Assembly: GCA_029932465.1 (NCBI GenBank)
Contig: JAOZQA010000003.1
Span: forward strand, 6,477-70,476
Direction: 5' to 3'
Origin: Thermoplasmatota archaeon
GTDB taxonomy: Archaea > Thermoplasmatota > Penumbrarchaeia > Penumbrarchaeales > EX4484-36
DNA: 64,000 nt
The position numbers and the translations under genes were made by a program. The notes beneath the pieces were generated by a model, which saw only the letters and a program-made list of their open reading frames with translations, made no database searches and had not been told where the DNA came from. Shown here piece after piece: positions 2,118 through 48,640 of the stretch. Within the stretch, counting starts at the first letter, position 1; the number at the start of each line of letters is the position of its first letter.

Positions 2118-2199
2118 GGGAATCACAACTCCACAAAACGTTTATATAGAGACTTCTGGTTTAACGCACTACCTCACAGTTTAAAAAGAGGTGTATCGT

Positions 2200-5100
2200 A
2201 TGCGTTTGAGATACCGTGGAAGCACCTGTTATACTGGAAGGCTCGCATTCAACCTCTTTATGGCCCTTGTCCTTCTCCTGCCCCTGATCAAATTCCCCGG
2301 GGCTGGAGGAGATCATCAGGTGGCAGAATCCCCTGCCCCCCCCTCTGTACGCGATGCTGAAGGCTGGATCACCTACATGGGGGACCTTCAGCACACGGGA
2401 GTTACCACCTCGGAGATGCCGCTTAAGCCCGAGGTGCTCTGGAGAGCCTCAGTGCCCCATCACACCCGCTCGTCCCCGCTTATATACAACGGCAGGGTGT
2501 ACATCGGTTCCGGGGACGGGAAGCTATACTGCTTTGACATTCAAGACGGCAGACTGCTCTGGACTTTCAGCACATACATAAACCAGTCCAACCCGGGGGG
2601 CGAGATCCGCTACACACCCACCCTCCAAAGAGGAGTTATATATATCACCACGGAGAGCTACGGCATCTATGCGGTGAACGCCACGACTGGGAGACTCATC
2701 TGGTATACCATCATGCCTGTGAGGTCCGTCTCTAGAACGCCGTCTCTTGCCGGGGATGTAATGGGAATCTCCGGAGCCAGGGTGGATAAGGCTTATTTTT
2801 ACGGCATAAATGCTTCAGGCGGCAGTGTCCTTTGGACCTTTGAGTTCTCCTCCCTCGTGGTGGGAATCGCTGGGGAGCCCGCCACCGATGGGGAGTTTTT
2901 CTACTTTGGAACAGATGCAGGCTACTTCTACGCCCTGGATAAGGACGGATTCGCAGACGGAAACGATGGGTATCAGGGGGAGACCAACACCACGTTGAGG
3001 GACGGCGATGTGGTGTGGGTATACAATGCCACCAGGCCGGTGGATGGCTCACCCACAGTAGCTGGAGGAGTAGTGCTCTTCGGCGACAGAGGTGGCTATC
3101 TCCACTGCCTGAACCGTCTAACAGGAGAGCCGCTCTGGGTGAAGAAGGTGGGTGATATGATATCAGCGGCTCCGGCGGTCTACCAGGGTAAGGTCTACAC
3201 CCTCACAATGAGCCTCTATTACATTGGCGGCTTCCCCTACCGCGGCACTAAACTTGCGGCCCTGAGGCTCACTGATGGATCTGAGATCTGGAACTACACA
3301 CGAACCAAGCCCCCCGAAGGGTCCGCTCCCGTCACCAACGGCAGGTACATCACCTTCGGTCTAGCGGACTCTAAGCTCTATCTGATAAATGCCACGGACA
3401 TCAGGCTTACGGAGGAGAACAGGGAGATCTGGAGGATAGATCTGGGGGCGCCCGTGCGAACGGTACCCGCAGTCTCAGACGGCAGGATAGCGGTCGCTAC
3501 TAATGGATCGGTTTACATGCTAGGGGTGCCGGAGATATACCTCTATCAGGTGACCTCCTCCAGCTATCTCCCGTATCACGGCGAGATGGCAGACTTCACA
3601 GCCCACCTCTGGAACAACGGTACTGTGGGGGCGGAAGTGAACGTCTCCTTCTGGAGGACCAATGCCAGAAACAAGCCGAAGGTACTTTTGGGTTATAAGG
3701 GAGTATATATCCCCCCAAGGTCATTCGGCGAGGTTACCATCACTGCACCTGTAGACATATCAACCCCTTACGTCTGGGCTCTTGTGGAGTCGACGTATCC
3801 AAGGGATCCCAGGCTTGAGAGAACCCCTGTGGGGGCACGGCTGAACCTCACGGTCCTCAGCCAGATTGAATGGGGATGGTACACCCCGGGGAAGAATAAC
3901 TTCGGCAACCTTTACGTCCCCCAGAGCCCTACATCAACAAAAGAATACTGGCATGTGGACCTCCCTGGTACGCCAGAGGGGGAGCCTCTCGTTATCAAAG
4001 GAGCGGTTGTGGTAGCTACCCAGCAGGGTCTTGTGAGGGCCTACTCCCGATATCTTGCGGGGGGTTCGGATGCTCCAACTATCCTCTGGGAGTGGCAGGC
4101 GCCCCAGGGTCTCTCATGTCCCCCTGTGGCTCTAGCATCAACTGTCTACTCCCCCTCAGACAAGGATATCGTCATTGTCCCTCTTCAAGGTGGGGAGGTC
4201 TGGGCCCTTGACCTCAGCGGCTTTATGGACATCTCCCAGCCCGGGGGCCCCAACGACGGCCCCTACACCTCGGAGCCGAGCCCCCAGGGAACTCACGCAG
4301 ATATCGTATGGTCGGCTTCCCTGCCGGGAGAGGTGAAGAGGGTAATGCCGGCCTTCGGAAGAATTTACGTTCTTACAGCTGAAGACACCCTCTATGCCCT
4401 TGACGATGACAACGGAACTGTCACCCTCACCCTGCCTCTTCAGGAGATCACGGATGTTCTATTCGGCGAGCGATACCTATACGTTGCCAACTCCTCGGGA
4501 GCTCTGCTCTTCATGGAACCTGCAACTGGAAAGGTGGTTTACAGCCTCAATCCCACCAATGAATCAATAACCCATCTCCGATACTCCTCGGGGTGGCTAT
4601 ACACCCTCACTGAAACCCACCTGATCGCACTGGACGGAGACCCTGATGACAACTCCGACGGGAAGATAGACATAAATGATACCGATGAGGGGATGACCGA
4701 CGCGGAGGTGGGTCCTATGGACCTCATTTTCGTCACCAACCTCACCGCCTCTCCGACGGGGTTCTTCTGTAGTGGTGAAGACCTCGTACTCATAGGCGAG
4801 GAGGACGGGATTGAGGTCTATGATGTTGAGAAGCGCTCTATGAGATACCGCGTGGAGGAGGACTTCCGCGGGTTTGTTGGAGCTTCCAAGTCTCTAATCC
4901 TCTACAGTTCCAGCGGGGTGAGCCTTCTCACTCTTCCCCCCACTCCAAGCCTCCCTGAGACGCTCTGGTCAGTCAGCATAGAGGCCTTCTCCCTCTCCTT
5001 CCTTGACGGCTATCTGTACATCTACAGGCCCGGGGGTCTCACGGTTCTTGGCTCTGAGAACAAACCCCCTTGGGTCTCTATAAACTCCCCCCGGGAAGGC

Positions 5101-6480
5101 GATGTCTTCTTTACAGAGGAGGAGATTGAGGTGGATCTGGGAGGAAGCTATGACCCGGACGGAGACGAGATAACCTTTGTGATAATCTCTGACAAGGAAG
5201 GAGTTCTCTATCGTGGCGGGGCCGACGGTGCGTCCATTGTCTTCTCGGAGGAGGGAAGGCACTTGCTTACCGTGAGGGCTGAAGACCCCTACGGCAGCTT
5301 TTCCGTGAAGAGGCTGAACGTCACTGCTCTGGAGAAAAAGATAACCCTCTTCCCCTCCCCTGCCCTGAACGTCGCTGTCCTTCTCTGCTACGGCGGCACG
5401 GGGTATGTGGAGTTCTCCGAGGCTGATGTGGCGGGAATTGAGGGAAGGGCACTCGTCCAGCCCGTGAGCATGAGGTTCGTACCTCTTTTTGAGAACGAGC
5501 CCTACCTCATAGCCTGGGCCAACATATCCTTTGACTCCTCTGGGGTCCTTCCGCCTTTTGGGATGAACCTCTCTAGGGCGGGGGTATTCAAGCTTGTGAA
5601 CGAGGAATGGGTTAGGATGAGCGGGGGCAGGGGCCCCGGGGAGAGGGAGTACTGGGCCAACACCACAGAATTCGGAAGCGCTGAGATGACAGTGGTTGCT
5701 GGGATCCTGGACAACCAGAGGCCATCTCTTTTCGGAGGGACGGCCACCCGGCTCAGAAGGGGAGTGTACGACTTCTCGATCTATTATCTGGACTACGACG
5801 ACGATGAGCCCTTAGAGGTGGTACTGGTTGTGGATAACCAGACCGAGTACAGCATGGTCCAGGAGGACCCCTTCGCCTATGAGTACGCCAAAGGCGTGAA
5901 GTTCGTAGCTCGCTCCGTGCGGGTGCCCCGGGGCGGAGGGGAGTGGCACACCTACTACTTCTATGCCAGGGACAGCTACCTTGGTGGGAAGAGCAGGTAT
6001 TATTCGCTTCACATACTGCCCAATCACCCGCCGGTTCCGGTCCCCGGGGTTTCCATGAAGGTGAAAGTGAACCAATTCGTGACCTTCAATGGGAGCCGAT
6101 CCTATGATCCCGACGGCGACCCCCTCTCTTACTACTGGGATTTTGACATAAGGGACGGTTTCCAGGTGGAGAAGGAGGGGGCGGTGGTGGTTTGGATGTT
6201 TACCGAACCTGGAAACTATACTGTGACACTTAAGGTAGACGACGGTGAGCTCAACGCCACGGCGTACATTCATGTGGAGGTGTACGAGCCGGAGAAGGCA
6301 AGCCCGCGAGGCCCCTCTGTCCTTTTAGGAGCCGCAATCCTCATGCTTGTAGTGATAATCTTCGTGGCGGTATTCCTTCTTGTAAGGAAGCACAGAGAAG
6401 AGGCTGAAATTGAACGCATGTGGGAGGCGGAAGAAGAGGAGAGTGCGACCTATCGCAGGAAAGGCAAAATCGAGGAGTGA
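2200..6480 (+). CDS. Large surface protein: N-terminal signal/TM, PQQ-like beta-propeller repeats, two PKD domains, C-terminal TM anchor with a charged tail
   Basis: Repeated G-x-(V/L)Y-x-G-S-x-DG-x-LY-a-L/D-x-x-(T/D)G and W-propeller blades in the first ~600 aa. PKD signatures GGSYDPDGDEITF and FNGSRSYDPDGDPLSYYWDF. C-terminal LLGAAILMLVVIIFVAVFLLV followed by KHREEAE. More than 20 N-x-S/T sequons. SD AAGAGGTG lies 7 nt before ATG 2200. Confidence 0.7.
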   Translation: MRLRYRGSTCYTGRLAFNLFMALVLLLPLIKFPGAGGDHQVAESPAPPSVRDAEGWITYMGDLQHTGVTTSEMPLKPEVLWRASVPHHTRSSPLIYNGRVYIGSGDGKLYCFDIQDGRLLWTFSTYINQSNPGGEIRYTPTLQRGVIYITTESYGIYAVNATTGRLIWYTIMPVRSVSRTPSLAGDVMGISGARVDKAYFYGINASGGSVLWTFEFSSLVVGIAGEPATDGEFFYFGTDAGYFYALDKDGFADGNDGYQGETNTTLRDGDVVWVYNATRPVDGSPTVAGGVVLFGDRGGYLHCLNRLTGEPLWVKKVGDMISAAPAVYQGKVYTLTMSLYYIGGFPYRGTKLAALRLTDGSEIWNYTRTKPPEGSAPVTNGRYITFGLADSKLYLINATDIRLTEENREIWRIDLGAPVRTVPAVSDGRIAVATNGSVYMLGVPEIYLYQVTSSSYLPYHGEMADFTAHLWNNGTVGAEVNVSFWRTNARNKPKVLLGYKGVYIPPRSFGEVTITAPVDISTPYVWALVESTYPRDPRLERTPVGARLNLTVLSQIEWGWYTPGKNNFGNLYVPQSPTSTKEYWHVDLPGTPEGEPLVIKGAVVVATQQGLVRAYSRYLAGGSDAPTILWEWQAPQGLSCPPVALASTVYSPSDKDIVIVPLQGGEVWALDLSGFMDISQPGGPNDGPYTSEPSPQGTHADIVWSASLPGEVKRVMPAFGRIYVLTAEDTLYALDDDNGTVTLTLPLQEITDVLFGERYLYVANSSGALLFMEPATGKVVYSLNPTNESITHLRYSSGWLYTLTETHLIALDGDPDDNSDGKIDINDTDEGMTDAEVGPMDLIFVTNLTASPTGFFCSGEDLVLIGEEDGIEVYDVEKRSMRYRVEEDFRGFVGASKSLILYSSSGVSLLTLPPTPSLPETLWSVSIEAFSLSFLDGYLYIYRPGGLTVLGSENKPPWVSINSPREGDVFFTEEEIEVDLGGSYDPDGDEITFVIISDKEGVLYRGGADGASIVFSEEGRHLLTVRAEDPYGSFSVKRLNVTALEKKITLFPSPALNVAVLLCYGGTGYVEFSEADVAGIEGRALVQPVSMRFVPLFENEPYLIAWANISFDSSGVLPPFGMNLSRAGVFKLVNEEWVRMSGGRGPGEREYWANTTEFGSAEMTVVAGILDNQRPSLFGGTATRLRRGVYDFSIYYLDYDDDEPLEVVLVVDNQTEYSMVQEDPFAYEYAKGVKFVARSVRVPRGGGEWHTYYFYARDSYLGGKSRYYSLHILPNHPPVPVPGVSMKVKVNQFVTFNGSRSYDPDGDPLSYYWDFDIRDGFQVEKEGAVVVWMFTEPGNYTVTLKVDDGELNATAYIHVEVYEPEKASPRGPSVLLGAAILMLVVIIFVAVFLLVRKHREEAEIERMWEAEEEESATYRRKGKIEE

Positions 6481-6605
6481 TCAAACAGCCTTTCAAATAA
6501 CACCTACCTTTGGAGAAGCCTTAAGTATGGGAACTAATATGGGTGGAAGTCCAATCAAGATAATCCCGGGCGCTTCTGCAAAAAGTGATGACAGGGTGAA
6601 AGCGG

Positions 6606-9600
6606 ATGGCGAGGAAGGCGAGAAGAGGCGAAAGAAAAAGAGCCAGAGCAAGACGGGAGATTGCCCTTGGGGGTATTGCAAAGAGAGCCGCTGAGCAGGT
6701 GGCCAGGAGGGAGGAGGAGATACGTGAAGAGCTGGTTAGCCTGAAGGGCTACCTTAGGAGGGAGAGAAGGACTGTTCTCGCCCTGCTTGGCATATTCCTC
6801 CTCGCTTTCTTCCTGCGCACGTACGTGTACTACACCCTATCCTTCGAAAGCTGGCCCCCTGTCACGGCCGGAAACGACCCCTATTACCACAAAAGGGTCA
6901 TAGACTATATTCAGACTTATCATACCCATATAAGACATGACAGCATGCTCAATTACCCGGTGGTGGGAGGAAACCCGAGGCCCCCCATATTCGACTGGTC
7001 TATAGCACTTCTCGGAATGCTACTTGGCCCCATGTTCGGTGGCGCTAGAGCGGTGACGTGGATCATATTTGAGTTCTACCCTGCCTTCTGGGGCGCCCTC
7101 ACAGTGATCCCAGTATACTTGCTAACCAAACAGGCATTCGATAAGAAAAGCGGACTCCTGGCATCGCTTTTCATCGCCCTCACACCGGCGCACATCGAAA
7201 GGTCCCCCTTAGGTTTCTCCGACCACGACTCTTTTGTCGTCTTCTTTGTGGTACTCTCTCTCTACTTCCTTACCCGCTCCTTCTCCCATCTGCCCGAGAA
7301 GAAGTGGGTGGCGGATTATAGGAAACCTTCTGAGGTGATCTTGGGTCTGAAGAGGTTCTTCGAGGAGAACAAGCTCGTCACCGGATATGCCCTTCTTGCG
7401 GGTCTCTCTCTCTCGGCCATAACGCTCACCTGGGAGGGGTTCCCCTACATCATGGTCATTCTGGTGGTCTACTATTTCATCCAGCTTCTCATCGACCGCT
7501 TCCGGAACACGGACTCTTTGGGGCTTTTCATCGTTATGACAATTGTTCTTGGACTCCCCATGTTCCTCTCCCTGCCCTACTACTACCTGTTCTCTATAAC
7601 CACCTGGATGGTAGCGTTTTTCCTTCTCCTTGCGGTGCTCTTCCTGGGCCTTATCATTGTTCCCACGAGGGACTACCCCTGGCTCCTGGTCCTGCCCACC
7701 CTAGGCGTCATCATCGCAGTGGTATACCTAATCCTCGCCAAGGGCTTCCCTGAGATGGCCCAGCTCATATTCACTGGCAGGGGCTATTTTGTGAAGAGCA
7801 AGCTGTACAGCACAATCGCTGAGGCACAGCCTCCAGATATAAGCAGGGTGATATTCTCCTTCGGCGTGGCGGGTTTCTTCTTAGCCCTCACAGGCATTCT
7901 CCTCTCAATAATGCAAATACCCAAGAACCTCAAACGGGACTACCTTCTCATTGTGGTTTGGACCACCGTAGCAATATATATGGCCTTAAGCGCCGTGCGT
8001 TTCGTCTTCAACGCCACCCCCGCCTTCGCAGTCCTTGCGGGATGGGTCACCTGGAGAATCGTTGAGAAGTTCGATGCTAAGATGCAGAGCCTTTCACTCT
8101 CCCTTCTCGGCGCCGGGACATTCCTTGTGAACCTTGGCATCATAAGTTATGCTTCCGACAAAGGTCTAACGGATGAGTTCTACGTCAAATATTTCCCCTA
8201 CATCGTCTTCGCTATCGCCCTGGCGATTGGATACGGCTACTATCTGCACATGAAGTACAGGGTCAAAAACCCCCGATTCAAGCTGAGGAAGGTTACCGTA
8301 GGCGTGCTTGTGGGCTTCTTTATAATGTACCCCTACGTGGTGGTGGCTTCCGACGCTGCGGTTCCTTATGAGAAGAAGCGCGACATAGACCCTACAGGGG
8401 AGTACATGGGTGCCTTCGGCCACAGCCTCCCCGGGGAGTACTGGATTGCCTCTTTTGACTGGCTTTCAAAGCAGGACGCAGACCTTCCCCCGGAGGAGAG
8501 ACCTGCCTTTATATCCTGGTGGGATTATGGGTTCTGGTGCGTCTATATGGGGCAACACCCCACAGCAGCGGACAACTTCCAGTACGGGTATCAGTTTGCA
8601 GGCTCCTTCATCGCCTCCACAGATGAGGATGAAGCCATCGCCTTGATGATAGCTAGGATATTAGAAGGAGACTTCATAGGAAATCAGGGTGAGTTCTCAA
8701 AGGAAGTAGCCGATATTATGAAGGATTACCTCAACTACACTACTGACCCCTCAGACTACATGAGGCTTGTTGACATCTACTCCCACCCGGACAAATATGT
8801 TGATGAGGTGGAGGCTCGCCCTGAAGTGTATGGCCACTACGTGGACATAACTCCCATGAATGCTAAATACGCCGCCGCTAAGGTCCTCATACTCTCTGGA
8901 GGAGAGGAGAGGATGGTGGAGCTCTACGGGAGGCTGAGGGAGGCCACTGGCAAATCCCTCCGGTATTTTGCCGTGGACTCCAGACTCTTCCCCTTCAGCG
9001 CCAGCAACACGGGGATTTTCTACGCTCCCATAAAGCTAGCGGACAGGGATCTGAACGACTACTTAGAATATTACGCCTACGCACAGAAGAATTACGGGAC
9101 TGATCAGAACCCTGACTGGAGGGACCTTCCCGACAACCCCATCTCAATGGACGAGCTTGAGAAATGGGCGAAAGATGAGCCTCACAAATACAGGGTCAAA
9201 AGATATGAACTACACTACACGGAGAACTTCTACAAATCCATGTTCTACAAGGCCTACATTGGCTATGGGCCGGAGGACATCGGTATGAGCATGGACGGGG
9301 TCTCCGTACCTGCCATGAAGGGGTCACTGCAGAACTATCCGCCCATGCAGGGCTGGAACATGAGCCACTTCCGCCTAGTCTACAGGACTATGTACTGGTC
9401 GCCCAAGGACGAGAAGAACTCCACCACGGAGGACTACATACCTATGTCTTACAAGGAGGCTGTAGAGAAGTACGAGAAGGAGGGGGGCGACATAAAGTCC
9501 GGTCTCGGGCAAGGAGTTTACTACCTCAAGTATTACGACGGGGCAGTCATAAGCGGAAGGGTCCTTACAAAGAGCGGGGTTCCGGTGCCGGGGGTGAGAA

Positions 9601-12600
9601 TCACGATACTTGACGAGTACGGGATTCCCCACGGCAGTGTCATCACAGATGAGGAGGGCAGATACTCCCTTCTAGCACCCTTTGGGGAGTGTACGCTTCT
9701 CGCCACAATGGGGGAGCTTGAGACGGCGTGGGACCGACTTTATCAGTATAAAGCAAAGCCCGACTCTAGGGAACCTGAGAACCTTCTCAACCTGACGAGG
9801 ATCACCATAACTGACGAGCAGGCCATGAGGGTCAAGGATTGGCAGATCAGAAGGAACCTTGAAGTGGATGATCTCACTGCTGAGGGCAGGATATACTTTG
9901 ACAATGACGACAGTGGAAGCTACGACGATAAGAAGGACACCCCCCTTGAGGACGTGAAGGTGACCTATACAATGCTGGGCGGAGACTATCAGGCGGTGAA
10001 TTACACCAACTTCCAGGGATATTATTCCTTCTACAGCATGCCGCCGGGGCATTACCATGTTGAGATGGAATACATGGGGTTCAAGAAAGTTCTGAGCGAG
10101 GACCTTGAGATATCCCCATCGTCTGAGAAGAAGCAGGACGGTGCCTTAAAGCCGGCCCAGATACACGGTTACGTAAGGCTACACGGGGGGGGTCAGGCGG
10201 TGGGCGCTGAGGTGAGGCTCACAGAGGCAGAAGGAGGGCGCGATTACAGCGCCGTGACCGATGAGAACGGCTACTACTCAATAGAGAATATGCTCCCCGG
10301 GGAGTATAAAGTAACCATAGACCGGGAGGGCTTTATGATAAACGAAAGCAGCGTGGGGCTTCAGGAGGGCTCGAATGTCTCCCATAACCTCACACTCCTA
10401 CCAGTGTCAACATGCACTGTGCGTGTGACTGTCCCCGGGGAACTGGCGGGGGGTGAGGAGTTCTCACCGTCAATGGCCCTTGTCCGATTCGTCATGAGGG
10501 ATACGCCTGAGTGGAGGTACTCCTTCTTCACCGGTGAAAATGGAATGGTGGAGGCGACCCTCCCGAAGGGAATCTATGCCGTGCATGTGGAGTACACCTC
10601 CGGTGAGAGGACCTTCGCCGCCATAGGCGAGGTCGACACGAGGATGGGAGGTACGTTCTTCCTTAATATTACCCTTGATGAGGCCTTCACCGTATATGGG
10701 AATGTCACGAAGCTGGAGAACATGGCTATGAAGTACCAGTGGATACGGTTCACTCCGCAGAACTCAACCGGGGTGACCTACGCCTTCACTGGCCCCAATG
10801 GCCTCTTCCAGATAGCTCTTCCCAAGGACACATACGCCGTCTACATCGAGGAGGAGATCCCCGGGTCTATAAACACACATCAGTTCTTTGGGTGGCTCTA
10901 TTCGCCCCCGGGGGAGTACGTGGAAGTGCACTACCACGCGCTCAAATCCGCCAAGGTGAGTGGGCGAGCATTCTGGGACCTGAACGACGATGGGATTTAC
11001 ACCGATGCTCAGAACAGGACGCTCAGGGAGTTCCTTACAAATCCCGCAGGTAACGTCACTGATCTAGCGATGGAGGGAGTGAGAGTCACCGTGAGCTCGG
11101 AGAACGGAACGATTACCACATATACCGACGCGAACGGGGAGTACGAAGTCAACCTCATGCCTGGGATCTACAGGCTTGAGGCATCATTTGGGGGGATGGT
11201 TTCCGAGCCCGCCTATATAAGCGTTGAGGATGAACCAATAACAATGAACGAGGGACTTAAGGACATAAACCTGAGGCTCTCCTCGGAGCCCCGGGAGGTC
11301 TCCCTTAGAGTGTTCTATACAAGGGATGGAGAGAGGGTACCCGCCTCTGGGCTCCCGGTGAAGGTGGAGTCCCTTCTTGACTACATCACATTAAACGAGA
11401 CCTTCGTAGCGGGCCTTGAGGGCGAGCTCACCGTATCCCTCACCCCCGGCTATTACCGACTGACGGTGCACACTGAATACCCCGGGGAGCCCAGGGTTTT
11501 GTACAATGGCTCTTCGAGCATCGTTGTACCCCCCGGTGAGGGGATTTACCCTATAGAGTTTGAAATAGAGAAATGGGTGGAGCAGGAGTTGACGGTCAGA
11601 TATGACGGGGTGGACCTGAACAGTGTTACGCTTCGCTTCATATCAGTCTCCCGGGAATACTCCTTCGTTACGGATCAAGAAGGGAGGGCAAGGGTATATC
11701 TTCCAGAGGGCAACTACACCGTAGCTCTAAGCCACCTCTTCGGCGTCCACCACCTGCTCTACATTCAGCAGCATTCACTCATAGAGGGCATCTGGGACCT
11801 TCCAGAGAGCGTAGAGCCCGTGGAAGGCTACGAATTCAGCGGAAGGGTTGTGGTAGAGAGCGTCTATCTTAAAGACTACGCCCTCAGCCTCAAGCTTCCC
11901 TACTACAGTGAGAGCGTTCCCCTGGACTCCACCGGCGCTTTCACAGCATATCTTCTCCCGGGGAGAGTATACAACGTCTCCTTCGACCTGAAGGCTGGTG
12001 TCAATGTGGAGATTCTCTACGTATACTCGGACACCATTGAGGCGGATGGTGACATGACTGGCGTTGAGATCCGGCCCCGGGAATATGTGAAGGTGGAGGG
12101 CACTGTATTCTACGACGAGAACGACGACCACTTTATAGATAAGGAGGAGAGGAAGGGAGGCGCCAACATCACCTTCACGGACGAGGTCTTCGGAGATGTC
12201 TACACCGTCCAGGCGGACGAGGAGGGGGACTACAGCATATATCTTCCGAGGTCCCTTTTCAGTATAGAGGTGGAGCTCGAGGGCTTCCAGAGGGAGCCCA
12301 AGGACTACGCTAGGAAAATCAATACCACCGTGGAGGTGAAGAAGGACATCCCCGTGCTCCCCTCTCCTCTGGAGGTAACTGGCCTGGCGTTCTACGACGA
12401 GAACGGCAACGGCTTCAGGGACACCGGTGAGATACTCCTCCCGGGGGCGGAGGTAAGGTTCATCGCCATAAGCTTCACAGGGGAGGACGCCACCGTTGAG
12501 GTCTCCTATGATGGAACATATACCGCATACCTCATGCCAGGGACCTACACCGTCTACGCCCTCTACGAACGGGCGGGTCAGCTAAGGTATTCCTGCATTC

Positions 12601-14093
12601 GGAATGTTACGACGGAGATAGGCTCCCCACCGGTCCAGCTCAACCTTACCATGAAAGATGCGAGGGAGTTTACGGGAACAGTCTTCTACTACGACACACT
12701 GGGAAAACTTGTAGATAACCTGACGTCCGAGCCAGGGGACGAGATTCTCTTCTCACCTGAGGGGGAGGCTGGATATCTTAGGGTGAACTACAACCGTGGG
12801 GTTTTCCGCGCCAAACTGCCTGTGGGTAACTACTCGGTGAAGATCGTTACTGTGAGGGAGGAGCTAGGTATTTCGATGACCTATCGGTACGAGGGCAAGA
12901 TTACCCTGAGGCTCAACACCACGGCGGATGAGCTTGCCTTCAGGCTTGAGAAGGTCAAAGAATACATAATAAAGATGGACACTGTGGGGGACGAGTACAA
13001 GGATATCTTCATGAAACCGTATCAGACCCTTACAATACCCCTCTACATTGAAAACCGCGGCAATCTGCCTTTTAAAGTAACCTTCTCCTCTTCGGATGTA
13101 CCTGAAGGATGGAAAGTGGAGTACTCTGTGACGGAGATGCACCTTGAGATCGGCGAGAAGAAGTACCTTCACGCCAACATCACCGCCCCCGCCAAGCCCT
13201 TGGCCCTGAACAACATGAAACTTGAGGCCCGCTCTGAGGGCGGGTACAGAAGCAACGTCCAGCTTCTGGTTCGAACGCCTCAGTACCACTCCTTCGAGAT
13301 AATAACTGATGCACCCACCTACAAAGGGGTCGCTTTCGAGCAGAGGCTGACCTACAACCTAACTGTGAAAAATACCGGTAACGGGGATGAAATAGTCCAC
13401 CTCAGAGTTATACCACCGCCGGAGGAGATAGAGGGGTGGGAGGTTCTAATAGAGGGAGATAAGTTGAGCGCAGAGGGCAAGAACCTTTCCCTGGGAGGTT
13501 TCGGAGAGAGACAGCTTCACATCGAGATCACCGTTCCCAACTCCACCCAGGCCTCCTACGGAGACAGCCTACATCTGCTTATAACAGGTGTAGATAGGCT
13601 CGGGCTAAAGAATAAGAGCGTTGAGATGACCTTCGAGATAAGACGTCCCGACCTGAAGGTGTTGGACGTGAAGTTCACAAACCTTGACCTCAAAAACAAG
13701 GTGCTCAATCGCACTGTGGTGGCCAATGTGACTGTTGCCTCCTTCGACAGAGAAGTGGCTGGCGTGAGAGTGGTTCTTAAGGTGGATGGGAAGGAAGTTG
13801 GTAACAAGACCGTGGACTATATACCTCAGGACGGCGCGGAGCATGTAGAGTTCGAATTCAACGTGACAATAGAGGGCATAGAGGAGGACTCCAAACATAC
13901 CTTTGAGGTGGTGGTGGATCCACAGAACGAGATCGAGGAAGAGAACGAAGCGGACAACCTCTACAGGGTGAAAAAACTTGTAGGGGAGGAGCCGCCTAGC
14001 CTTCTCAATCCCAGAGTGATAGCCTTTGTGATATCTATTGTGGTTATGACGGTGATTCTGATCGTCTGGTATCGGAGGAAGCATCCTTTCTGA
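6606..14093 (+). CDS. aglB: Archaeal oligosaccharyltransferase AglB/STT3. N-terminal multi-TM catalytic core, fused to about 12 CarboxypepD_reg/Cna-B-like beta-sandwich repeats, CARDB/Ig-like domains, and a second C-terminal TM anchor. 2,495 aa.
   Basis: TM1 followed by GNDPYYHKR (first-loop acidic motif). About 13 TM helices. WWDYGFW motif at aa ~640. The C-terminal 1,700 aa contain repeats of G-R-V-x-D-x-x-G-x-P-V-x-G-V-x-V and YDENDDGxxD..E motifs. Terminal VIAFVISIVVMTVILIVWYRRKHPF. The start is uncertain; the Arg-rich N-terminus is preceded by GGTGA. Confidence 0.8.
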   Translation: MARKARRGERKRARARREIALGGIAKRAAEQVARREEEIREELVSLKGYLRRERRTVLALLGIFLLAFFLRTYVYYTLSFESWPPVTAGNDPYYHKRVIDYIQTYHTHIRHDSMLNYPVVGGNPRPPIFDWSIALLGMLLGPMFGGARAVTWIIFEFYPAFWGALTVIPVYLLTKQAFDKKSGLLASLFIALTPAHIERSPLGFSDHDSFVVFFVVLSLYFLTRSFSHLPEKKWVADYRKPSEVILGLKRFFEENKLVTGYALLAGLSLSAITLTWEGFPYIMVILVVYYFIQLLIDRFRNTDSLGLFIVMTIVLGLPMFLSLPYYYLFSITTWMVAFFLLLAVLFLGLIIVPTRDYPWLLVLPTLGVIIAVVYLILAKGFPEMAQLIFTGRGYFVKSKLYSTIAEAQPPDISRVIFSFGVAGFFLALTGILLSIMQIPKNLKRDYLLIVVWTTVAIYMALSAVRFVFNATPAFAVLAGWVTWRIVEKFDAKMQSLSLSLLGAGTFLVNLGIISYASDKGLTDEFYVKYFPYIVFAIALAIGYGYYLHMKYRVKNPRFKLRKVTVGVLVGFFIMYPYVVVASDAAVPYEKKRDIDPTGEYMGAFGHSLPGEYWIASFDWLSKQDADLPPEERPAFISWWDYGFWCVYMGQHPTAADNFQYGYQFAGSFIASTDEDEAIALMIARILEGDFIGNQGEFSKEVADIMKDYLNYTTDPSDYMRLVDIYSHPDKYVDEVEARPEVYGHYVDITPMNAKYAAAKVLILSGGEERMVELYGRLREATGKSLRYFAVDSRLFPFSASNTGIFYAPIKLADRDLNDYLEYYAYAQKNYGTDQNPDWRDLPDNPISMDELEKWAKDEPHKYRVKRYELHYTENFYKSMFYKAYIGYGPEDIGMSMDGVSVPAMKGSLQNYPPMQGWNMSHFRLVYRTMYWSPKDEKNSTTEDYIPMSYKEAVEKYEKEGGDIKSGLGQGVYYLKYYDGAVISGRVLTKSGVPVPGVRITILDEYGIPHGSVITDEEGRYSLLAPFGECTLLATMGELETAWDRLYQYKAKPDSREPENLLNLTRITITDEQAMRVKDWQIRRNLEVDDLTAEGRIYFDNDDSGSYDDKKDTPLEDVKVTYTMLGGDYQAVNYTNFQGYYSFYSMPPGHYHVEMEYMGFKKVLSEDLEISPSSEKKQDGALKPAQIHGYVRLHGGGQAVGAEVRLTEAEGGRDYSAVTDENGYYSIENMLPGEYKVTIDREGFMINESSVGLQEGSNVSHNLTLLPVSTCTVRVTVPGELAGGEEFSPSMALVRFVMRDTPEWRYSFFTGENGMVEATLPKGIYAVHVEYTSGERTFAAIGEVDTRMGGTFFLNITLDEAFTVYGNVTKLENMAMKYQWIRFTPQNSTGVTYAFTGPNGLFQIALPKDTYAVYIEEEIPGSINTHQFFGWLYSPPGEYVEVHYHALKSAKVSGRAFWDLNDDGIYTDAQNRTLREFLTNPAGNVTDLAMEGVRVTVSSENGTITTYTDANGEYEVNLMPGIYRLEASFGGMVSEPAYISVEDEPITMNEGLKDINLRLSSEPREVSLRVFYTRDGERVPASGLPVKVESLLDYITLNETFVAGLEGELTVSLTPGYYRLTVHTEYPGEPRVLYNGSSSIVVPPGEGIYPIEFEIEKWVEQELTVRYDGVDLNSVTLRFISVSREYSFVTDQEGRARVYLPEGNYTVALSHLFGVHHLLYIQQHSLIEGIWDLPESVEPVEGYEFSGRVVVESVYLKDYALSLKLPYYSESVPLDSTGAFTAYLLPGRVYNVSFDLKAGVNVEILYVYSDTIEADGDMTGVEIRPREYVKVEGTVFYDENDDHFIDKEERKGGANITFTDEVFGDVYTVQADEEGDYSIYLPRSLFSIEVELEGFQREPKDYARKINTTVEVKKDIPVLPSPLEVTGLAFYDENGNGFRDTGEILLPGAEVRFIAISFTGEDATVEVSYDGTYTAYLMPGTYTVYALYERAGQLRYSCIRNVTTEIGSPPVQLNLTMKDAREFTGTVFYYDTLGKLVDNLTSEPGDEILFSPEGEAGYLRVNYNRGVFRAKLPVGNYSVKIVTVREELGISMTYRYEGKITLRLNTTADELAFRLEKVKEYIIKMDTVGDEYKDIFMKPYQTLTIPLYIENRGNLPFKVTFSSSDVPEGWKVEYSVTEMHLEIGEKKYLHANITAPAKPLALNNMKLEARSEGGYRSNVQLLVRTPQYHSFEIITDAPTYKGVAFEQRLTYNLTVKNTGNGDEIVHLRVIPPPEEIEGWEVLIEGDKLSAEGKNLSLGGFGERQLHIEITVPNSTQASYGDSLHLLITGVDRLGLKNKSVEMTFEIRRPDLKVLDVKFTNLDLKNKVLNRTVVANVTVASFDREVAGVRVVLKVDGKEVGNKTVDYIPQDGAEHVEFEFNVTIEGIEEDSKHTFEVVVDPQNEIEEENEADNLYRVKKLVGEEPPSLLNPRVIAFVISIVVMTVILIVWYRRKHPF

Positions 14094-14101
14094 GGTTTAG
14101 G

Positions 14102-15937
14102 TCATAGAACTGAGTAGAAGTCGGGCACTCCTTCCTCCCCTAAGGAGAACTCGACGCTTCTTCCCTCACCGAGGAAATAAAGGAAGAGGTGGGAGAGCTG
14201 CCCGCTTAGCAGGTCAGCACTGCTGGGAAAGCCGTGGGGCTGGGCGAGTATGAATCCTCTTCTCTTGAGCTTGTCCTTAAGCGCTCGGATGGCGGGTACT
14301 GTGGATTCGCCTTCTGTAAACCCTTTGAGGGCCAGGCCGAACTGCCTCTTCTTTATGAGTTCTTTTATTTTCTCATTGATCCCGTCAGGCACAGCCCCCT
14401 CTAGAAGCGCAAAGAGGAACGGCACCATCCCCTGGACCTCCCCTCCATATGTGAGTCCACGGCCTCCTATGCCCCCGCTGTACCTGAAGGAGTACTTGAC
14501 GGACTTCTCAAGGCTGTAAGTAGTTCCGAGTTCCTTCTTTATCCGCCGAAGGATCTCCTCCTCCCCCAGGTATCTTTTGAGAGATGCCTCATCCAGGGTT
14601 ACGGTGCTCAGGAGCTCCTCAAGTTCCTCCTTTCTGAAGCCCCTAGCACCCCACAGTCCTTTCTCCCCTCTCTCTTCCATGACAATGTTTCTCCAGCCGT
14701 GGAAGTAGAGGAGTGACGCTAAGATACCCTTCACTTGGTCCGACGACTGGCGGGGTAGATACACAAGAAGGGGCGGGAGATTCCCCTTAAGAAGACCGTC
14801 TATCGCAGCGCTCTTCCTTCTCTCGTAGGCATCAATACTCTCCTTCAGGTTCTCCTCCTGCCTCTTCAGGTTTATGATCTCCTCCACATAGTATCTCAAA
14901 CGCTCCCGCTCCTCCTCACTGGTGCCAACATCCTGTCTCTCTCTGAGGTTAGCCCTCAGGTCCTCCCAGCGCTCCCTCGACCTTTCCCAGTCTTCCACCG
15001 GGAGGTCCTTGAGCCTGATAGGCTTCGTCCTGAGAAGCTCGTTCAACCTCCTTCTCACGTTCTCAAGGTTCTTATAGAGTAGCGGTAGGGTCCTGTTGGC
15101 CTCAGAAAGAACCAGTCCCACGAATCTAACGGCCTTGACCGTTATCTCCTCAGCTACCCTGCTGAGCCTCCACGCTTCAAGGGCTTTCTCAGAGGTCACA
15201 CCAACGTACCGCTTGACATCCCCGGGGTTTGAGAAGAGCTTCCCCACCACCTCAAGTTTTTTTTCCCTCTCCCCTAGCAGAAGTGAGGCGCTGACGGAAA
15301 GTAGAAGGAGAGCCCTCTCCCTCTCACTACCCCCTACCCACCTCCTCAGAAGGCTCTTCTTCTCAGAGAGCTGCCAGAGGTTGTCAGAGAGAGCAGCAAG
15401 GTGCAGCAGAACCCTCCGATACCTGTCGTCCTTGAATGGATCGGAGAGGGCGAACTCTATCATGCTCTTCCTGCCCCCCTCGGCTATATGAAAAAGGTAG
15501 GACGAGAGAAGGGCGGTGCATGAGGGGTATGTAGCTATCCCTTTATCGGACTCCCCCTCCCCTTTCTCTCGGGGTGGGCTGACGATGAAGTGTCTCTCGT
15601 TCAGAAGCTTGGTGTTTGTGTGAGGGAGGTGGTGGTCTATCACCACGACGTTCTCCTTTTCCCATTCTGGTCTTCTTATGTCCAGAAATACGTGAAGGAG
15701 GCCGTCAGCCAGCTTCACACTGAACATTTCGGAATGGTCAAGGGGGAGGAAAGCAAGAGGCTTCCTGCCTCGCAGGCGCTCTAGGACGTCCTTGAGCAGA
15801 AGTGCGCTGTTCAACCCGTCAACGTCATTGTGGAAATGGACCTTTATCCCGTCGTAGGTCTCCAAATGGCCTCTTAGGGCTTTGAGAAAGCTCTTGGCCT
15901 CTTCTGCATCTACGTCGCACGGCACCTGCTGGGACAT
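14102..15937 (-). CDS. DHH-family phosphoesterase (RecJ/GAN-like N-terminal DHH domain, central coiled-coil insertion, DHHA1-like C-terminal region)
   Basis: HFHNDVDG (motif I/II), VIDHHLPH (DHH motif), a Gly-rich SGGIGGRGLTYGG near the C-terminus, and a ~200-aa charged heptad-like segment in the middle. Confidence 0.5.
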   Translation of the reverse strand: MSQQVPCDVDAEEAKSFLKALRGHLETYDGIKVHFHNDVDGLNSALLLKDVLERLRGRKPLAFLPLDHSEMFSVKLADGLLHVFLDIRRPEWEKENVVVIDHHLPHTNTKLLNERHFIVSPPREKGEGESDKGIATYPSCTALLSSYLFHIAEGGRKSMIEFALSDPFKDDRYRRVLLHLAALSDNLWQLSEKKSLLRRWVGGSERERALLLLSVSASLLLGEREKKLEVVGKLFSNPGDVKRYVGVTSEKALEAWRLSRVAEEITVKAVRFVGLVLSEANRTLPLLYKNLENVRRRLNELLRTKPIRLKDLPVEDWERSRERWEDLRANLRERQDVGTSEEERERLRYYVEEIINLKRQEENLKESIDAYERRKSAAIDGLLKGNLPPLLVYLPRQSSDQVKGILASLLYFHGWRNIVMEERGEKGLWGARGFRKEELEELLSTVTLDEASLKRYLGEEEILRRIKKELGTTYSLEKSVKYSFRYSGGIGGRGLTYGGEVQGMVPFLFALLEGAVPDGINEKIKELIKKRQFGLALKGFTEGESTVPAIRALKDKLKRRGFILAQPHGFPSSADLLSGQLSHLFLYFLGEGRSVEFSLGEEGVPDFYSVL

Positions 15938-15946
15938 CTCCCACCC

Positions 15947-18900
15947 TCACAGCTCATCGTCTTCATCCCAAACGACATATCTTCTGCGCCTTCTGGGGGT
16001 TCTTTCCTCCCCCGGCTTTTTGAACGAGATCTCCTCAACCTCCGGAGGGGGGACGGAAGGTGCCTCTTCCTCTTCCGGGTATTCCTCCTCCGGCGCCTCC
16101 TCGATCTCACTCAGTTTTTCCTCTTCTTCGGGTATCCCCTCACCAGCCCCCCTCATAAACTCTTTAAGGTCCTCCTCCTTGACCTCCACCGCTGCCGGCT
16201 CCACCGGGGACGGCATAGTCTCTTGGGTGGTCACCGCCGGGGGTGCGGCAGCCTCACCCTCCACCATTTTCTTCAGCGTCTCCACGTCTGGCTCCACCCC
16301 GTAGAGCTCTTTGTACAGCTTCCTCTGTTCAGCGAAGGGGTCCTCTACCATTCTCTTTTTCAACCTCATGTTGTAAATAAGTGCCCCTGCTACAGTTATT
16401 ATTACCATGGCCACGATGGTAAGCGGGAGATATTCACCGAAGACCTTCTCCCTCAGATAGGCAAGCGCTGGGTATTTGGACCTAGGCTTGACCAGGACCT
16501 CAACGCTGTATTCAGGGGAGGTGTAGCTTGTCTGTCCATCCTCACAAACAACTCTGAGGCGGAAGCTGTATACCCTCGCTTTCGTATCCTTCTCCGGAGT
16601 GAAAGCGACTCTCAAGGGGTATACTGCCCCGGGGGGCAAGGTGAGGGAGTAATCCTTGTAGTATAGTTCCAGTTTGATCCACTTCTCACCCGCCCCCTCC
16701 CCTTCAAGGTACACGGTCACGTTGTCGGACAGGTGTGCTTCATTTGTAATGGACACCTCCACCACGAGGGCATCTCCTCTCTCCAACGACCATCTTCTTG
16801 GACCAGTGAAGTTGATGCCGAAATCTATAACCTTGAAAATGTCTCTTTTTAAAGAGGAGAAGTTCCCACCGTCCCAGGCGAGGATCTCCACGTGGTATAT
16901 GCCGTAGGTGAGGGGCTCGGTGAAGTTGAGGTTAGGGCTCTTGCACCATTTCCAGGGAACTATGTCTCCTGAAGCCCAGTCCCTGCCCACTTGAACAAGA
17001 TAGCTCACTGCCTCCCCCTCCGGATCCACAGAACCTCCCCACGAGATCCCCGGGGCGGTGTAGGCGAAGAGGCTCTTGAGAAGTGGGCCGGGGGCTGGTG
17101 GGGGCAGGTCCCCGCTGGAGAGCACGGTGAGGTTGGCCTTGAGGACGTTGGAATTGGAGTGTGAATCATTGGCCACCACCTCCACGAAGTATTTGCCTAC
17201 CCTCAGGTTTACGCTTGCCGGAACGTCTATGAAGTTGTACCTTCCGGTGCTGACCCAGTCCATCACAGTGGTTCCAAAGGTGGCTTCTAGGATTCTCACC
17301 CTGTAGGTTATAGTATCGTTCTCTATGTCCTCTGCTGGATCCCACCATATATGTGGGGTTCTGCTGGCGGTGGTGGAGGGATATATCCTCCCTGTGAGAA
17401 CAGGGGGATAGTTGTCAGGGATTCTTAAGGTGTACCTCACCGGCCCGTAGACGTACCACCCAGTGTCCGCCAGGTCCTTGGCCCGGAACTTGATCATGTT
17501 GAGGTTACCCTCTGTGAGCCTGAAGTGGAACCATATGGTAACGTCACCATGCTCTTCTACAGTGTAGTTTTCCACCTTCTTCCAGGGGGTATAGGGGAGG
17601 ACTTCTGAGTGACTATAACAGTATTCAATGGAAGAGATGTTCACCCCTGACACCTCAAGATCCGGCTGATAGAGGTCCCTATCGTAGACGATAATTGAGA
17701 CGTTTATGTCAGGGAATATCTGAGTTTCGTACGGGCTGGGCTGGAGGTTTCTGAACTTCACCTTTATCGTGTCTATCCAGATGTTCACAGGAGGTGACTC
17801 GTTCAGGTTCCCCACCCTGTCAGTGAACCGCCATTTCACCCAGTTGTACTTTCCTTCGTTGGCCTTGACGTCCAGGTAGGCGTAGACGCTTCCGTTGGGA
17901 AGAACGCTGACATGAGGAAGATCTCCCACCCCAGTGTAAATGTCCGAGCCCAGCGTTTTGATGTAGGCTCTTATACTGCCGGGGGCTACTCCTGCCACCC
18001 CGATATCCTTTATCATGAGGTAGCATCTCACATAAGAGGTGTTGTACCAACGGGGGATTATGGGGCCGTAGTCCAGCACTATGGGCTTTGAGAGGTCAAG
18101 TATGGGCCCCGGGTGTACAGGGGAGATGAGGGGCTCTGTCATATCCCCTGACATCACCTCATAACGGTAGTAGATTCTGCCACTACTCCACTCCACTGTG
18201 GTGGTTGCAATCCAGAGGGAGCCCGCCGTATTGTCTCTCTCGCTCTCGGCGGGTCTCATGACGGTTGCCTCTCCTATCTGTTCTGTGCCGTTTTTGTCAG
18301 CGAAGAGCAGGAGGCGGGGATAGCCGGCTGAGGGGTCATCACCATCTATGTCCCTGTACCAGAGGGTGAAGGTGAACTCCGTCTCGTTTGTCCCAATCTC
18401 GGGGGTGAAGCCCCTGTCCTCGAAGATGGGCGGGCGGTTCTGACCGGTCAGGGTCTCGCTGTAGCGGGCGAAGTATATGTCCGAGCGTGTGAAGAGCTCG
18501 TCTCTGTGGTCAGCCCACACAACAAGGGGCCTTCCTATGGAGTTGAAGGCGAGGTGGGGATCCTCCTGCTTTGTCTCGTCGTCGGCGGTGCCAAGCGTCC
18601 GCTGGGTGTCGTCCACCCTCCTGGCGCCCGTCCATGTGGTGCCGTTGTTTATCGTGTAGGTGAAGTAGATGTCTCCTTCGTCGTGAGAACGGTCCACCCA
18701 GGTTATTCCCACCATCCCCGGGGAGAAGACGGCCACCCTGGGGTTTAGCTCAAGGCCTCCTTCAGGGCCGTTATAGGCTAGCATGTTCATGGTGAAGTTC
18801 CTACCATCCCTGGTGGTGGAGTAGTAGATGTCGTAGGAGCCGAGCCTGTTATCGGACCAGACTATGTATACCAGGCCCGTAGAGTCCACTGCCAGGTCCG

Positions 18901-19723
18901 GGTCGTTCTGGGAATAGGGTTCCAGATCGTCATTTACCCTTCTCTCAGGGAGGAAGGTGTCGCCCCTGTCGTAGGAGACGGCCATGAAGATGCTGAAATC
19001 CCCCTCCCTCTGGTCGCTCCACACTATGAAAACTTTCTCTCCGTAAACAGCGATCTTGGGTCCGTACTGGTCCACACTGAGACCCCCAGAGTTCACCCTC
19101 TTCTCCCCTATCCACGTCACACCTCCGTCCTCAGATCGGGCGAAGTAGACGTGGAACTTGCCACCCTCTCTTTTGTCAAGCCAGGTAAGGTAAAGGGTGC
19201 CGTCCTCACCCACAGCCAAGGAAGGATAGATGGCATCTCTTATTGAGGTGTCAACCCTTCTGTGGGTGGAGAAGTTCACATAGTCCTCGCTCCAGACCAC
19301 GTATACGTGGTAGTAATGGACCCCAATGTAGATCTCCTGGTCATCGCTGTAGGCTACGTAGAGAGTGCCGTTGGGTGCGAAAACGGCGGTGGGGTACATT
19401 TGGTTGGAGAAGTCGTTGCTTGAATTCAAATCCCTTCTGGAATCGTCCACTTGTATCTTTTCACTCCAGGTGTAGCCGCAGTCGGTGGAGCGCGCCATTG
19501 AAATATCCCAGTTGGTGTAGAAGTAGTCCTGATATATCACGAAGAGGTCGTCCATTCCCCTAGTGAGGATGACCGGGCGCCTCTGATGGCTGCCTGTGGA
19601 GTTCCAGTTCACAAGGATGCTGCTGGAGAAGCTGTCTCCAGCGCCTTCGGTGTAATGGGGGATAAGGTAAAGTCCAGACAGCAGAAGGGTAAATAAAACG
19701 GCGAGGCCGAGCATCTTTCGCAT
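15947..19723 (-). CDS. Secreted BNR/Asp-box (sialidase-like) beta-propeller protein with Ig-like repeats, C-terminal TM and a ~150-aa acidic cytoplasmic tail
   Basis: Signal peptide MRKMLGLAVLFTLLLSGL. Asp-boxes STDCGYTW, SEDGGVTW, SYDRGDTF, TTRDGRNF, INNGTTW. TM LPLTIVAMVIITVAGALIY. Tail rich in E/P that ends RRRRRYVVWDEDDEL. Start set at the second ATG (19723); GGAGG lies 4-7 nt upstream. Confidence 0.65.
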   Translation of the reverse strand: MRKMLGLAVLFTLLLSGLYLIPHYTEGAGDSFSSSILVNWNSTGSHQRRPVILTRGMDDLFVIYQDYFYTNWDISMARSTDCGYTWSEKIQVDDSRRDLNSSNDFSNQMYPTAVFAPNGTLYVAYSDDQEIYIGVHYYHVYVVWSEDYVNFSTHRRVDTSIRDAIYPSLAVGEDGTLYLTWLDKREGGKFHVYFARSEDGGVTWIGEKRVNSGGLSVDQYGPKIAVYGEKVFIVWSDQREGDFSIFMAVSYDRGDTFLPERRVNDDLEPYSQNDPDLAVDSTGLVYIVWSDNRLGSYDIYYSTTRDGRNFTMNMLAYNGPEGGLELNPRVAVFSPGMVGITWVDRSHDEGDIYFTYTINNGTTWTGARRVDDTQRTLGTADDETKQEDPHLAFNSIGRPLVVWADHRDELFTRSDIYFARYSETLTGQNRPPIFEDRGFTPEIGTNETEFTFTLWYRDIDGDDPSAGYPRLLLFADKNGTEQIGEATVMRPAESERDNTAGSLWIATTTVEWSSGRIYYRYEVMSGDMTEPLISPVHPGPILDLSKPIVLDYGPIIPRWYNTSYVRCYLMIKDIGVAGVAPGSIRAYIKTLGSDIYTGVGDLPHVSVLPNGSVYAYLDVKANEGKYNWVKWRFTDRVGNLNESPPVNIWIDTIKVKFRNLQPSPYETQIFPDINVSIIVYDRDLYQPDLEVSGVNISSIEYCYSHSEVLPYTPWKKVENYTVEEHGDVTIWFHFRLTEGNLNMIKFRAKDLADTGWYVYGPVRYTLRIPDNYPPVLTGRIYPSTTASRTPHIWWDPAEDIENDTITYRVRILEATFGTTVMDWVSTGRYNFIDVPASVNLRVGKYFVEVVANDSHSNSNVLKANLTVLSSGDLPPPAPGPLLKSLFAYTAPGISWGGSVDPEGEAVSYLVQVGRDWASGDIVPWKWCKSPNLNFTEPLTYGIYHVEILAWDGGNFSSLKRDIFKVIDFGINFTGPRRWSLERGDALVVEVSITNEAHLSDNVTVYLEGEGAGEKWIKLELYYKDYSLTLPPGAVYPLRVAFTPEKDTKARVYSFRLRVVCEDGQTSYTSPEYSVEVLVKPRSKYPALAYLREKVFGEYLPLTIVAMVIITVAGALIYNMRLKKRMVEDPFAEQRKLYKELYGVEPDVETLKKMVEGEAAAPPAVTTQETMPSPVEPAAVEVKEEDLKEFMRGAGEGIPEEEEKLSEIEEAPEEEYPEEEEAPSVPPPEVEEISFKKPGEERTPRRRRRYVVWDEDDEL

Positions 19724-19783
19724 CATATTACCTCCAGATGGCCAGGGGCTTATAAGCATGGGGAATATAAAATATTTGGCAGG

Positions 19784-48617: not shown

Positions 48618-48640
48618 GTGGTATTCTCTATATGTGAGGG

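Follow-up and report, generated by a model that had tools for sequence, protein, structure and literature searches.

The 64,000-nucleotide (nt) stretch of DNA analysed here (the window, to which coordinates refer unless another locus is named) comes from a Thermoplasmata-type archaeon and carries an aglB locus whose oligosaccharyltransferase (OST) is a giant, predicted to be held in the membrane at both ends. We read the locus, with a probability of roughly 0.7, as a giant doubly anchored AglB encoded among genes for ordinary surface glycoproteins and not as a self-contained glycosylation module. A preliminary description of the same DNA had proposed a dedicated module of the latter kind; it passed over the architecture of AglB, which is the real oddity of the locus. 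Within a known enzyme family, the giant, doubly anchored AglB represents a new variant, one that is widespread in Thermoplasmatota. The gene and its parts, with amino-acid (aa) ranges, are:

6606..14093 (+), aglB, giant oligosaccharyltransferase of 2,495 aa (Pfam, homologues, alignment to 3WAJ)
6771..8348 (+), STT3 multi-span membrane domain, aa 56-581 (hydropathy, 3WAJ alignment)
8349..9485 (+), extracellular catalytic core, aa 582-960 (Pfam AglB_core-like and STT3-PglB_core)
8517-8531 (+), WWDYG motif, aa 638-642 (3WAJ alignment)
9528..12890 (+), about 12 tandem transthyretin-like (CarboxypepD_reg) domains, aa ~975-2095 (Pfam, iterated hidden Markov model, HMM)
12891..14000 (+), about three membrane-proximal CARDB/NEW3-like domains, aa 2096-2465 (Pfam)
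14007..14072 (+), second, C-terminal membrane anchor, aa ~2468-2489, followed by YRRKHPF (hydropathy)

The N-terminal part of the protein is that of an archaeal OST. Pfam places STT3 at aa 79-482 (E 7e-18) and adds AglB_core-like, STT3-PglB_core, CarboxypepD_reg (E 4e-56) and CARDB; hydropathy gives 11 segments across aa 56-581, preceded by a basic N-terminus (aa 1-55). The first ~950 aa match AglB-L of Archaeoglobus fulgidus (3WAJ) with E 1e-13, and D91 (in GNDPYY), D206-H207-D208 (in GFSDHD), T403-I-A-E406 (TIAE) and W638-W-D-Y-G642 align to their counterparts in that structure. In an alignment of 18 homologues at 30-40% identity, D91, D206/D208 and the residues of TIAE and WWDYG are invariant. 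Judging from these motifs, AglB is catalytically intact. Its best NCBIfam match is TIGR04154, the archaeosortase A system-associated STT3 family, at 237.8 bits over aa 58-821, which is below the family cut-off of 450 bits.

The C-terminal extension, or stalk, accounts for most of the chain that follows. An iterated HMM finds 12 significant transthyretin-like repeats between aa ~975 and 2095, spaced ~90-100 aa apart. Pfam adds NPCBM_assoc at aa 2140-2200 and CARDB at aa 2368-2453, and hydropathy centres the closing transmembrane (TM) segment on aa 2471-2489. With this second TM the chain would re-enter the membrane and the ectodomain would be tethered at both ends, leaving ~1,900 aa outside the cell. 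Both termini are predicted to be cytoplasmic, as the basic aa 1-55 and the YRRKHPF end fit such a topology.

This layout extends far beyond the window. The homologue set consists of the 120 best protein clusters, all with the giant-AglB layout; 116 of them have at least 2,000 aa, and those that are shorter look truncated. WWDYG is found in all 116. The alignment is colinear up to the C-terminus, where the hydrophobicity threshold is reached in 102 of the 116 and a clear anchor lies just below it in 11; the remaining three have none, two of them being named partial and the third stopping mid-domain. A scan with one genome per species returned 394 stretches with AglB relatives, from which 78 loci were kept. 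Almost all of these are labelled Thermoplasmatota and comprise EX4484-6-type metagenome-assembled genomes, Methanomassiliicoccales, marine group III and others. In another assembly (cluster P0002) AglB has the same length and is 88% identical to that of the window. Database names for the giant proteins are automatic ('STT3 domain-containing', 'carboxypeptidase regulatory-like domain-containing'), and our literature searches on giant AglBs, on Thermoplasmatota AglB and on AglB with PGF-CTERM found no description of the architecture.

A stalk of this size may do more than hold an enzyme. A tentative alternative, which elaborates the reading of a giant AglB among ordinary surface-glycoprotein genes rather than excluding it, is that the protein is also a major structural component of the coat of a wall-less cell (an S-layer surrogate or glycocalyx scaffold) or contains a built-in OST accessory, with the CARDB and TM portion as a separable subunit. 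The conservation and colinearity of the stalk and second anchor across the phylum argue for such a role, as does the presence in the stalk of 31 of the 35 sequons (N-x-S/T sites) of AglB. On the other side, stalk identity in related loci is ~30% against ~51% for the enzyme part, so that the stalk evolves faster, like decorative surface domains, and tandem β-sandwich stalks are generic in surface proteins.

The tail of AglB bears on the question of a separable subunit. In 27 Methanomassiliicoccales-type loci a protein of ~258 aa with a signal peptide, CARDB and a TM is encoded directly 3' of aglB; examples are:

L082, 16483-17253 (+), small CARDB gene, 256 aa
L031, 16465-17241, small CARDB gene
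L044, 16483-17253, small CARDB gene

The aglB stop and the start of the small gene overlap or abut in most of the 27 loci, and the small protein has a median of six sequons. It shows weak homology to aa ~2230-2492 of the window AglB (23-26% identity, E down to 2e-9), a level of similarity that tells against the accessory reading. The last CARDB block (window AglB aa 2341-2465) is missing from all five aligned AglBs that have the small gene downstream. An HMM of the small protein finds its match at the very C-terminal end of AglB in 14 loci, all of which lack the separate gene, and matches no AglB in 25 loci that have it. The two states never co-occur, a mutual exclusion that favours a separable part; ~10 loci with short-tailed AglBs have neither the small gene nor a C-terminal match, which weighs the other way. 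A search for the tail among 1.84 billion representatives gave 397 matches: to giant AglBs, to further proteins of 1,000-1,500 aa that match at their C-termini, and to small proteins with lengths of 247-293 aa. That this tail module also ends other large surface proteins again suits a structural role; it has no significant similarity to the products of genes A and D beside aglB or to the other envelope proteins of the window. As a lead only, these patterns suggest that the tail is a module fused to AglB in some lineages and separate in others, and the small CARDB protein is a candidate separable OST subunit.

Some homologues end differently. Clusters P0066, P0071, P0072, P0077, P0078, P0082, P0092, P0105, P0053 and P0057 close with PGF or PGY, an Ala-rich TM and RRR, and these ends resemble the PGF-CTERM sorting signal of archaeosortase A, the enzyme to which TIGR04154 is also linked. 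PGF-CTERM is known mainly from S-layer glycoproteins, and its likeness here is a further point in favour of a coat element. No PGF motif precedes the C-terminal TM of the window AglB, which ends ...LLNPRVIAFVISIVVMTVILIVWYRRKHPF, a plain TM with a basic tail.

Taken to its full extent, the structural and accessory reading would give much of Thermoplasmatota an 'AglB-XL': an OST with a heavily glycosylated stalk of ~15 domains, re-anchored by a TM (or by an archaeosortase-made lipid anchor where the end is PGF-CTERM-like) and doubling as a coat element of mostly wall-less archaea, the CARDB and TM portion being a separable accessory subunit that Methanomassiliicoccales-type genomes supply from a small, translationally coupled gene. 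We regard this as speculative and rather unlikely in its entirety. If it is true, archaea would have their first OST with several components. In the usual account of N-glycosylation in archaea, a lone AglB subunit with one compact globular external domain does the work; a phylum-wide stalk of 1,500 residues with a second anchor raises questions of how a coat is built and spaced, how substrates are recruited and what part a CARDB-protein subunit would play. Provided that their AglB is a giant one, cultured Methanomassiliicoccales should allow experiments.

The preliminary description placed its emphasis on the neighbours of aglB, which are:

2141..2148 (+), TATA-box-like element TTTATATA, ~50 nt 5' of gene A
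2191..6480 (+), gene A, 1,429 aa, type-I anchored surface protein (Pfam, hydropathy)
6022..6282 (+), PKD domain of gene A, aa 1278-1364 (Pfam PKD_4 E 4e-16; ColH PKD match)
14102..15937 (-), gene C, 611-aa DHH/DHHA1 phosphoesterase, cytoplasmic (DHH motifs, Foldseek, synteny)
15947..19759 (-), gene D, 1,270 aa, Asp-box propeller surface protein (Pfam BNR_2, hydropathy, model)
19784..21721 (-), uvrC (context), co-directional with D and 24 nt upstream of it

Open reading frames (ORFs), Pfam and hydropathy agree with the earlier account of A and D as propeller and sandwich proteins that are dense in sequons and, like AglB, anchored by a C-terminal TM. The arrangement that it gave, with A and D flanking aglB, holds for A; D is separated from aglB by gene C, which had been overlooked, and both C and D are convergent to aglB.

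Gene A encodes 1,426 aa if read from the ATG at 2200. By hydropathy, its product has an N-terminal hydrophobic signal and, ahead of a short, charged tail, a TM (aa 1380-1398). It contains two BamB/PQQ-type propeller regions (PQQ_2, E 1.9e-49, in four stretches), matched in the PDB by the propellers of BamB and tetrathionate hydrolase, and a PKD/PKD_4 region at aa 1278-1364 that matches the PKD domains of ColH. It is best described as a probable binding-type surface protein. Assignment as a PQQ-dependent dehydrogenase is not supported: the TIGR03075 score of 55 bits falls far short of that family's cut-off (480), and the likeness is to the generic PQQ_2/BamB-like fold only.

Gene D (1,259 aa in the Joint Genome Institute (JGI) call, against the 1,270-aa ORF) encodes a BNR/Asp-box β-propeller protein (BNR_2, E 1.2e-8). 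A signal peptide is followed by a seven-bladed Asp-box propeller (nt ~18461-19588), about seven immunoglobulin (Ig)-like sandwiches (nt ~16475-18427), a TM at aa 1110-1128 (nt 16376-16432) and an acidic cytoplasmic tail of 142 aa (nt 15950-16375). The model, built from 33 sequences with a predicted local distance difference test (pLDDT) score of 84, has seven near-identical Asp-box blades, about seven Ig-like sandwiches and the TM helix; four or five Asp-box-like matches of the S-x-D-x-G-x-T-W type lie in the propeller. A search against PDB sequences gave no match, and the closest structures to the propeller are the sialidase of Micromonospora viridifaciens (1EUT) and the pseudaminidase of Pseudomonas aeruginosa (2W38). 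Sialidases are six-bladed. D shares BNR_2 and Asp-boxes with GH33 sialidases and other BNR propellers, whereas its modelled propeller is seven-bladed and internally symmetric, and no FRIP/xRIP motif was found inside it. On the model, these features would rule out a true GH33 sialidase, and the 'exo-alpha-sialidase' label on the D homologue P0128 is probably an over-annotation. Orthologues of D retain the TM and an acidic cytoplasmic tail of 76-139 aa.

Gene C has no TM and a single sequon, and Pfam gives a weak DHH match only. Residues H36-N-D38-x-D40-G, D86, D101-H-H103 and D185 are invariant and a GG-rich, DHHA1-like GGxGGRG is present. The best NCBIfam match is RecJ_archaeal (E 1e-9, 37.5 bits, short of the cut-off of 360). 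Foldseek places Pyrococcus furiosus RecJ, Methanothermobacter thermautotrophicus RecJ-Cdc45 and GAN at the top of the matches to the model, with low TM-scores; the C-terminal half of the model is of low confidence. A word-indexed search gave five relatives. C shares its DHH motif residues with archaeal RecJ, GAN and Cdc45, and is larger, with a long helical insert. It is a DHH phosphoesterase of the RecJ/Cdc45 superfamily, of the nucleic-acid type. A glycosylation-related phosphoesterase was set aside, since the evidence points to the RecJ/Cdc45 fold, and for the same reason we treat C as unrelated to glycosylation.

Whether these genes form a unit with aglB can be judged from pathway genes, sequons, synteny and transcription. 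The reading at issue is that of a dedicated envelope-building module, with the OST beside its main substrates A and D and coupled to them functionally and regulatorily. Within 10 kb of aglB lie genes for a β-CASP RNase, A, C, D, UvrC, a PIN protein and a GvpD-like ATPase. The preliminary description had noted that no glycosyltransferase or flippase gene adjoins these genes and that glycan-assembly genes must lie elsewhere. This is borne out: in a scan that covered the ORFs up to 24 kb and the 20 longest of the others, none was found, and their absence there argues against a dedicated module. The closest sugar-nucleotide enzyme is an NAD-dependent epimerase/dehydratase at 44010-44969, 30 kb from aglB. 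It is situated near two divergent ORFs for membrane-anchored proteins, at 46401-49031 (-; 876 aa) and 49576-52230 (+; 884 aa), which have a small ORF between them and for which a Pfam scan gave no match.

Sequons were compared with the expectation from 300 shuffles of each protein's own sequence:

Gene A, 24 observed, 6.0 expected, z 7.6
AglB, 35 observed, 10.2 expected, z 8.8
Gene D, 21 observed, 6.5 expected, z 6.0
ORF 46401-49031, 16 observed, 4.3 expected, z 5.8
ORF 49576-52230, 12 observed, 3.9 expected, z 4.4

In A, AglB and D the sites are three- to fourfold above the composition-based expectation, and 39%-50% of the Asn residues of these proteins fall within them; in the orthologues of D and AglB the enrichment is ~2-fold. 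C has one sequon, uvrC none and most other cytoplasmic ORFs 0-2, without enrichment. The density that had been proposed as a check is therefore real, and it counts for a module of enzyme and substrates; the unlinked envelope ORFs at 46-52 kb are its equal, which counts against. Since these lie 30 kb away and are equally enriched, the excess is a general trait of the exported proteins of this organism and not peculiar to the neighbours of aglB. A and D are plausible AglB substrates because they are membrane-anchored extracellular proteins with this three- to fourfold excess.

Synteny was followed by tblastn of the window proteins against the 78 related loci, with up to 10 kb of flank each; near-clade loci are those in which the N-terminal region of AglB is at least ~50% identical. 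C and then D lie downstream of aglB on the opposite strand in all 16 near-clade loci with enough downstream sequence. Identity there is ~31-33% for C and ~30% for D; in L002, the closest locus, these values rise to 56% and 66%. That D remains only a few kb from aglB in 16 relatives at an identity of ~30% speaks in favour of a coupled module. The D-C pair is co-directional, separated by 9 nt in the window and by 24-228 nt in relatives, and is kept in 15-17 related genomes, where a surface protein is paired in this way with a cytoplasmic RecJ-like protein.

The remaining synteny speaks against a module. In some relatives unrelated genes, for example for a P-type ATPase, separate aglB from C. No homologue of A lies near aglB in any of the 16 near-clade loci with at least 5.8 kb of upstream sequence, nor in any of the 78 loci except the organism's own (L001). 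C and D were not detected by tblastn in the more distant giant-AglB loci, the Methanomassiliicoccales type among them, and in the sole annotated locus of that type (L082) aglB has a housekeeping context, following genes for RNA polymerase, L7Ae and NusA. uvrC is beside D in the window and L002 only. The conserved synteny that had been proposed as a check thus exists for D, together with C, and fails for A.

In the place of A, 14-18 related genomes have genes for a β-helix protein (~1,345 aa), YitT, DUF1616, DUF58 and a 177-aa protein upstream of aglB. In the near-clade loci L080 and L081 this conserved run is located 5-10 kb before aglB; the window lacks the whole run and has gene A instead. 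The DUF1616 protein of the relatives is sequon-rich (median 6 against 1.7 expected). None of these proteins, nor a TSP3-like protein seen in relatives, was found elsewhere in the window.

Transcription signals are compatible with some coupling. A is followed on the same strand, after 125 nt, by aglB. Boxes of the TTTATATA type occur nine times in the window against 1.5 expected, and the one at 2141..2148 is the only one before A and aglB; no TATA-like element was found in the gap between them (6481-6605) or in the gap between uvrC and D. One transcript may thus cover A and aglB in this organism, and another may cover uvrC, D and C. The first of these arrangements would suit a dedicated module; the second would not, D being convergent to aglB and apparently transcribed with uvrC and the RecJ-like gene.

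Weighing these lines together, we consider a dedicated module improbable. A is not conserved beside aglB, a RecJ-like gene intervenes on the other side, and distant relatives have aglB in a housekeeping context. The narrower statement that the enzyme is encoded beside its probable substrates survives in part: A and D are plausible substrates and D stays near, yet the adjacency of A is organism-specific. The association is best called loose and lineage-limited, given the lack of conservation of A, the presence of C, the housekeeping context elsewhere and the equal sequon richness of unlinked ORFs. For the original claim the value of the analysis is corrective: probable substrates are near the enzyme, yet only loosely and within a lineage, and there is no dedicated island.

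An artefact, in which misassembly or a frameshift joined a normal aglB to the surface-protein gene behind it and so made the 2,495-aa ORF, is effectively refuted: the AglBs of known structure are much smaller (875 aa in the longest of the matching PDB chains) and the stalk found no match in a PDB sequence search, but an identical (100%) protein is present in an independent JGI assembly (cluster P0001), full-length colinear homologues occur in more than 100 clusters and in the related loci examined, and no stop or frame change interrupts the 7.5 kb.

We propose that the catalytic core of the giant AglB would transfer a lipid-linked glycan to the N-x-S/T sites of secreted proteins, like any AglB, and that its sequon-rich stalk would itself be glycosylated and add to the glycoprotein coat of the cell. 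A and D would be ordinary large type-I surface glycoproteins and probable substrates, as would the unlinked envelope proteins, and A and D would lie beside aglB because envelope genes are loosely clustered. Within one lineage the order aglB, C, D is conserved, and the adjacency of A and aglB is peculiar to this organism.

Several points weigh against this proposal. (i) Large surface proteins are encoded near aglB in relatives too (the ~1,345-aa β-helix protein, the DUF1616 protein and a TSP3-like protein of ~800 aa), a pattern that a dedicated module would also predict, and selection may therefore favour a cluster of envelope genes around aglB. (ii) The retention of D near aglB at ~30% identity, despite inserted genes, exceeds phylogenetic inertia and leaves room for a real functional link. 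(iii) The DK/MI motif, which forms the Ser/Thr pocket, had no unambiguous match by eye in aa 670-820 of AglB. The motif has the form DXXKXXX(M/I) or the variant E<>KXXX(M/I/P), and variant forms are assignable only with a three-dimensional structure (PMC3703281). An invariant block in the 18-homologue alignment, IFYAPIKLAD (aa 804-813), is a candidate for the site.

Other features of the window lie apart from the aglB locus. A 23S rRNA gene at 61903-64000 (+) is cut by the end of the window; no 16S rRNA gene was found in the 5 kb before it, where a histidyl-tRNA synthetase and a TPR protein are encoded. Unlinked rRNA genes are reported for Thermoplasmata, and a 23S gene without a nearby 16S gene fits this. 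An Rfam tRNA match at 21938-22044 (-) is unusually long at 107 nt and possibly contains an intron; ARAGORN was silent there. The ORF at 55876-60213 (-) encodes a cytoplasmic protein of 1,445 aa, whose sole Pfam matches are TPR repeats at aa ~180-270.

In Haloferax volcanii and other archaea, aglB is clustered with genes for glycosyltransferases, a flippase and sugar-nucleotide enzymes. The present locus has in common with these that it is a cell-surface-related region; it differs in that the neighbours are putative substrates, with no pathway enzymes adjoining. Gene clusters for N-glycosylation centred on aglB are mentioned in PMC11407970.

The stalk invites a second comparison. The eukaryotic nodal modulator (NOMO) is a transthyretin/Ig-like rod with a C-terminal TM that lies beside the translocon of the endoplasmic reticulum, and a string of CarboxypepD_reg-clan β-sandwiches ending in a single TM is likewise found in the AglB stalk. 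Matches of AglB to NOMO domains are sub-threshold (NOMO1-like_9th, E 4e-4; NOMO_5th, E 1.4e-3), and PF22904 is precomputed on most giant-AglB homologues. All these matches are below gathering scores and fit a generic similarity at the level of the clan, and NOMO itself is not known to be fused to STT3. Sub-threshold Pfam matches are the sole basis for a NOMO-like reading of the stalk.

The closest comparison is with AglB-L of A. fulgidus (3WAJ/5GMY) and P. furiosus. The window AglB shares with these the STT3 membrane domain, the acidic motifs of loop 1, TIXE, WWDYG and an external AglB_core-like catalytic core, all in a single polypeptide. Its sequence identity to 3WAJ is low, and the DK/MI motif was not located in it. 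The external part of described AglBs ends after the globular CC, IS, P1 and P2 units (PMC3703281). The AglB-L chain of 3WAJ has 875 aa, whereas that of the window continues for ~1,500 aa more, through the stalk to the second anchor.

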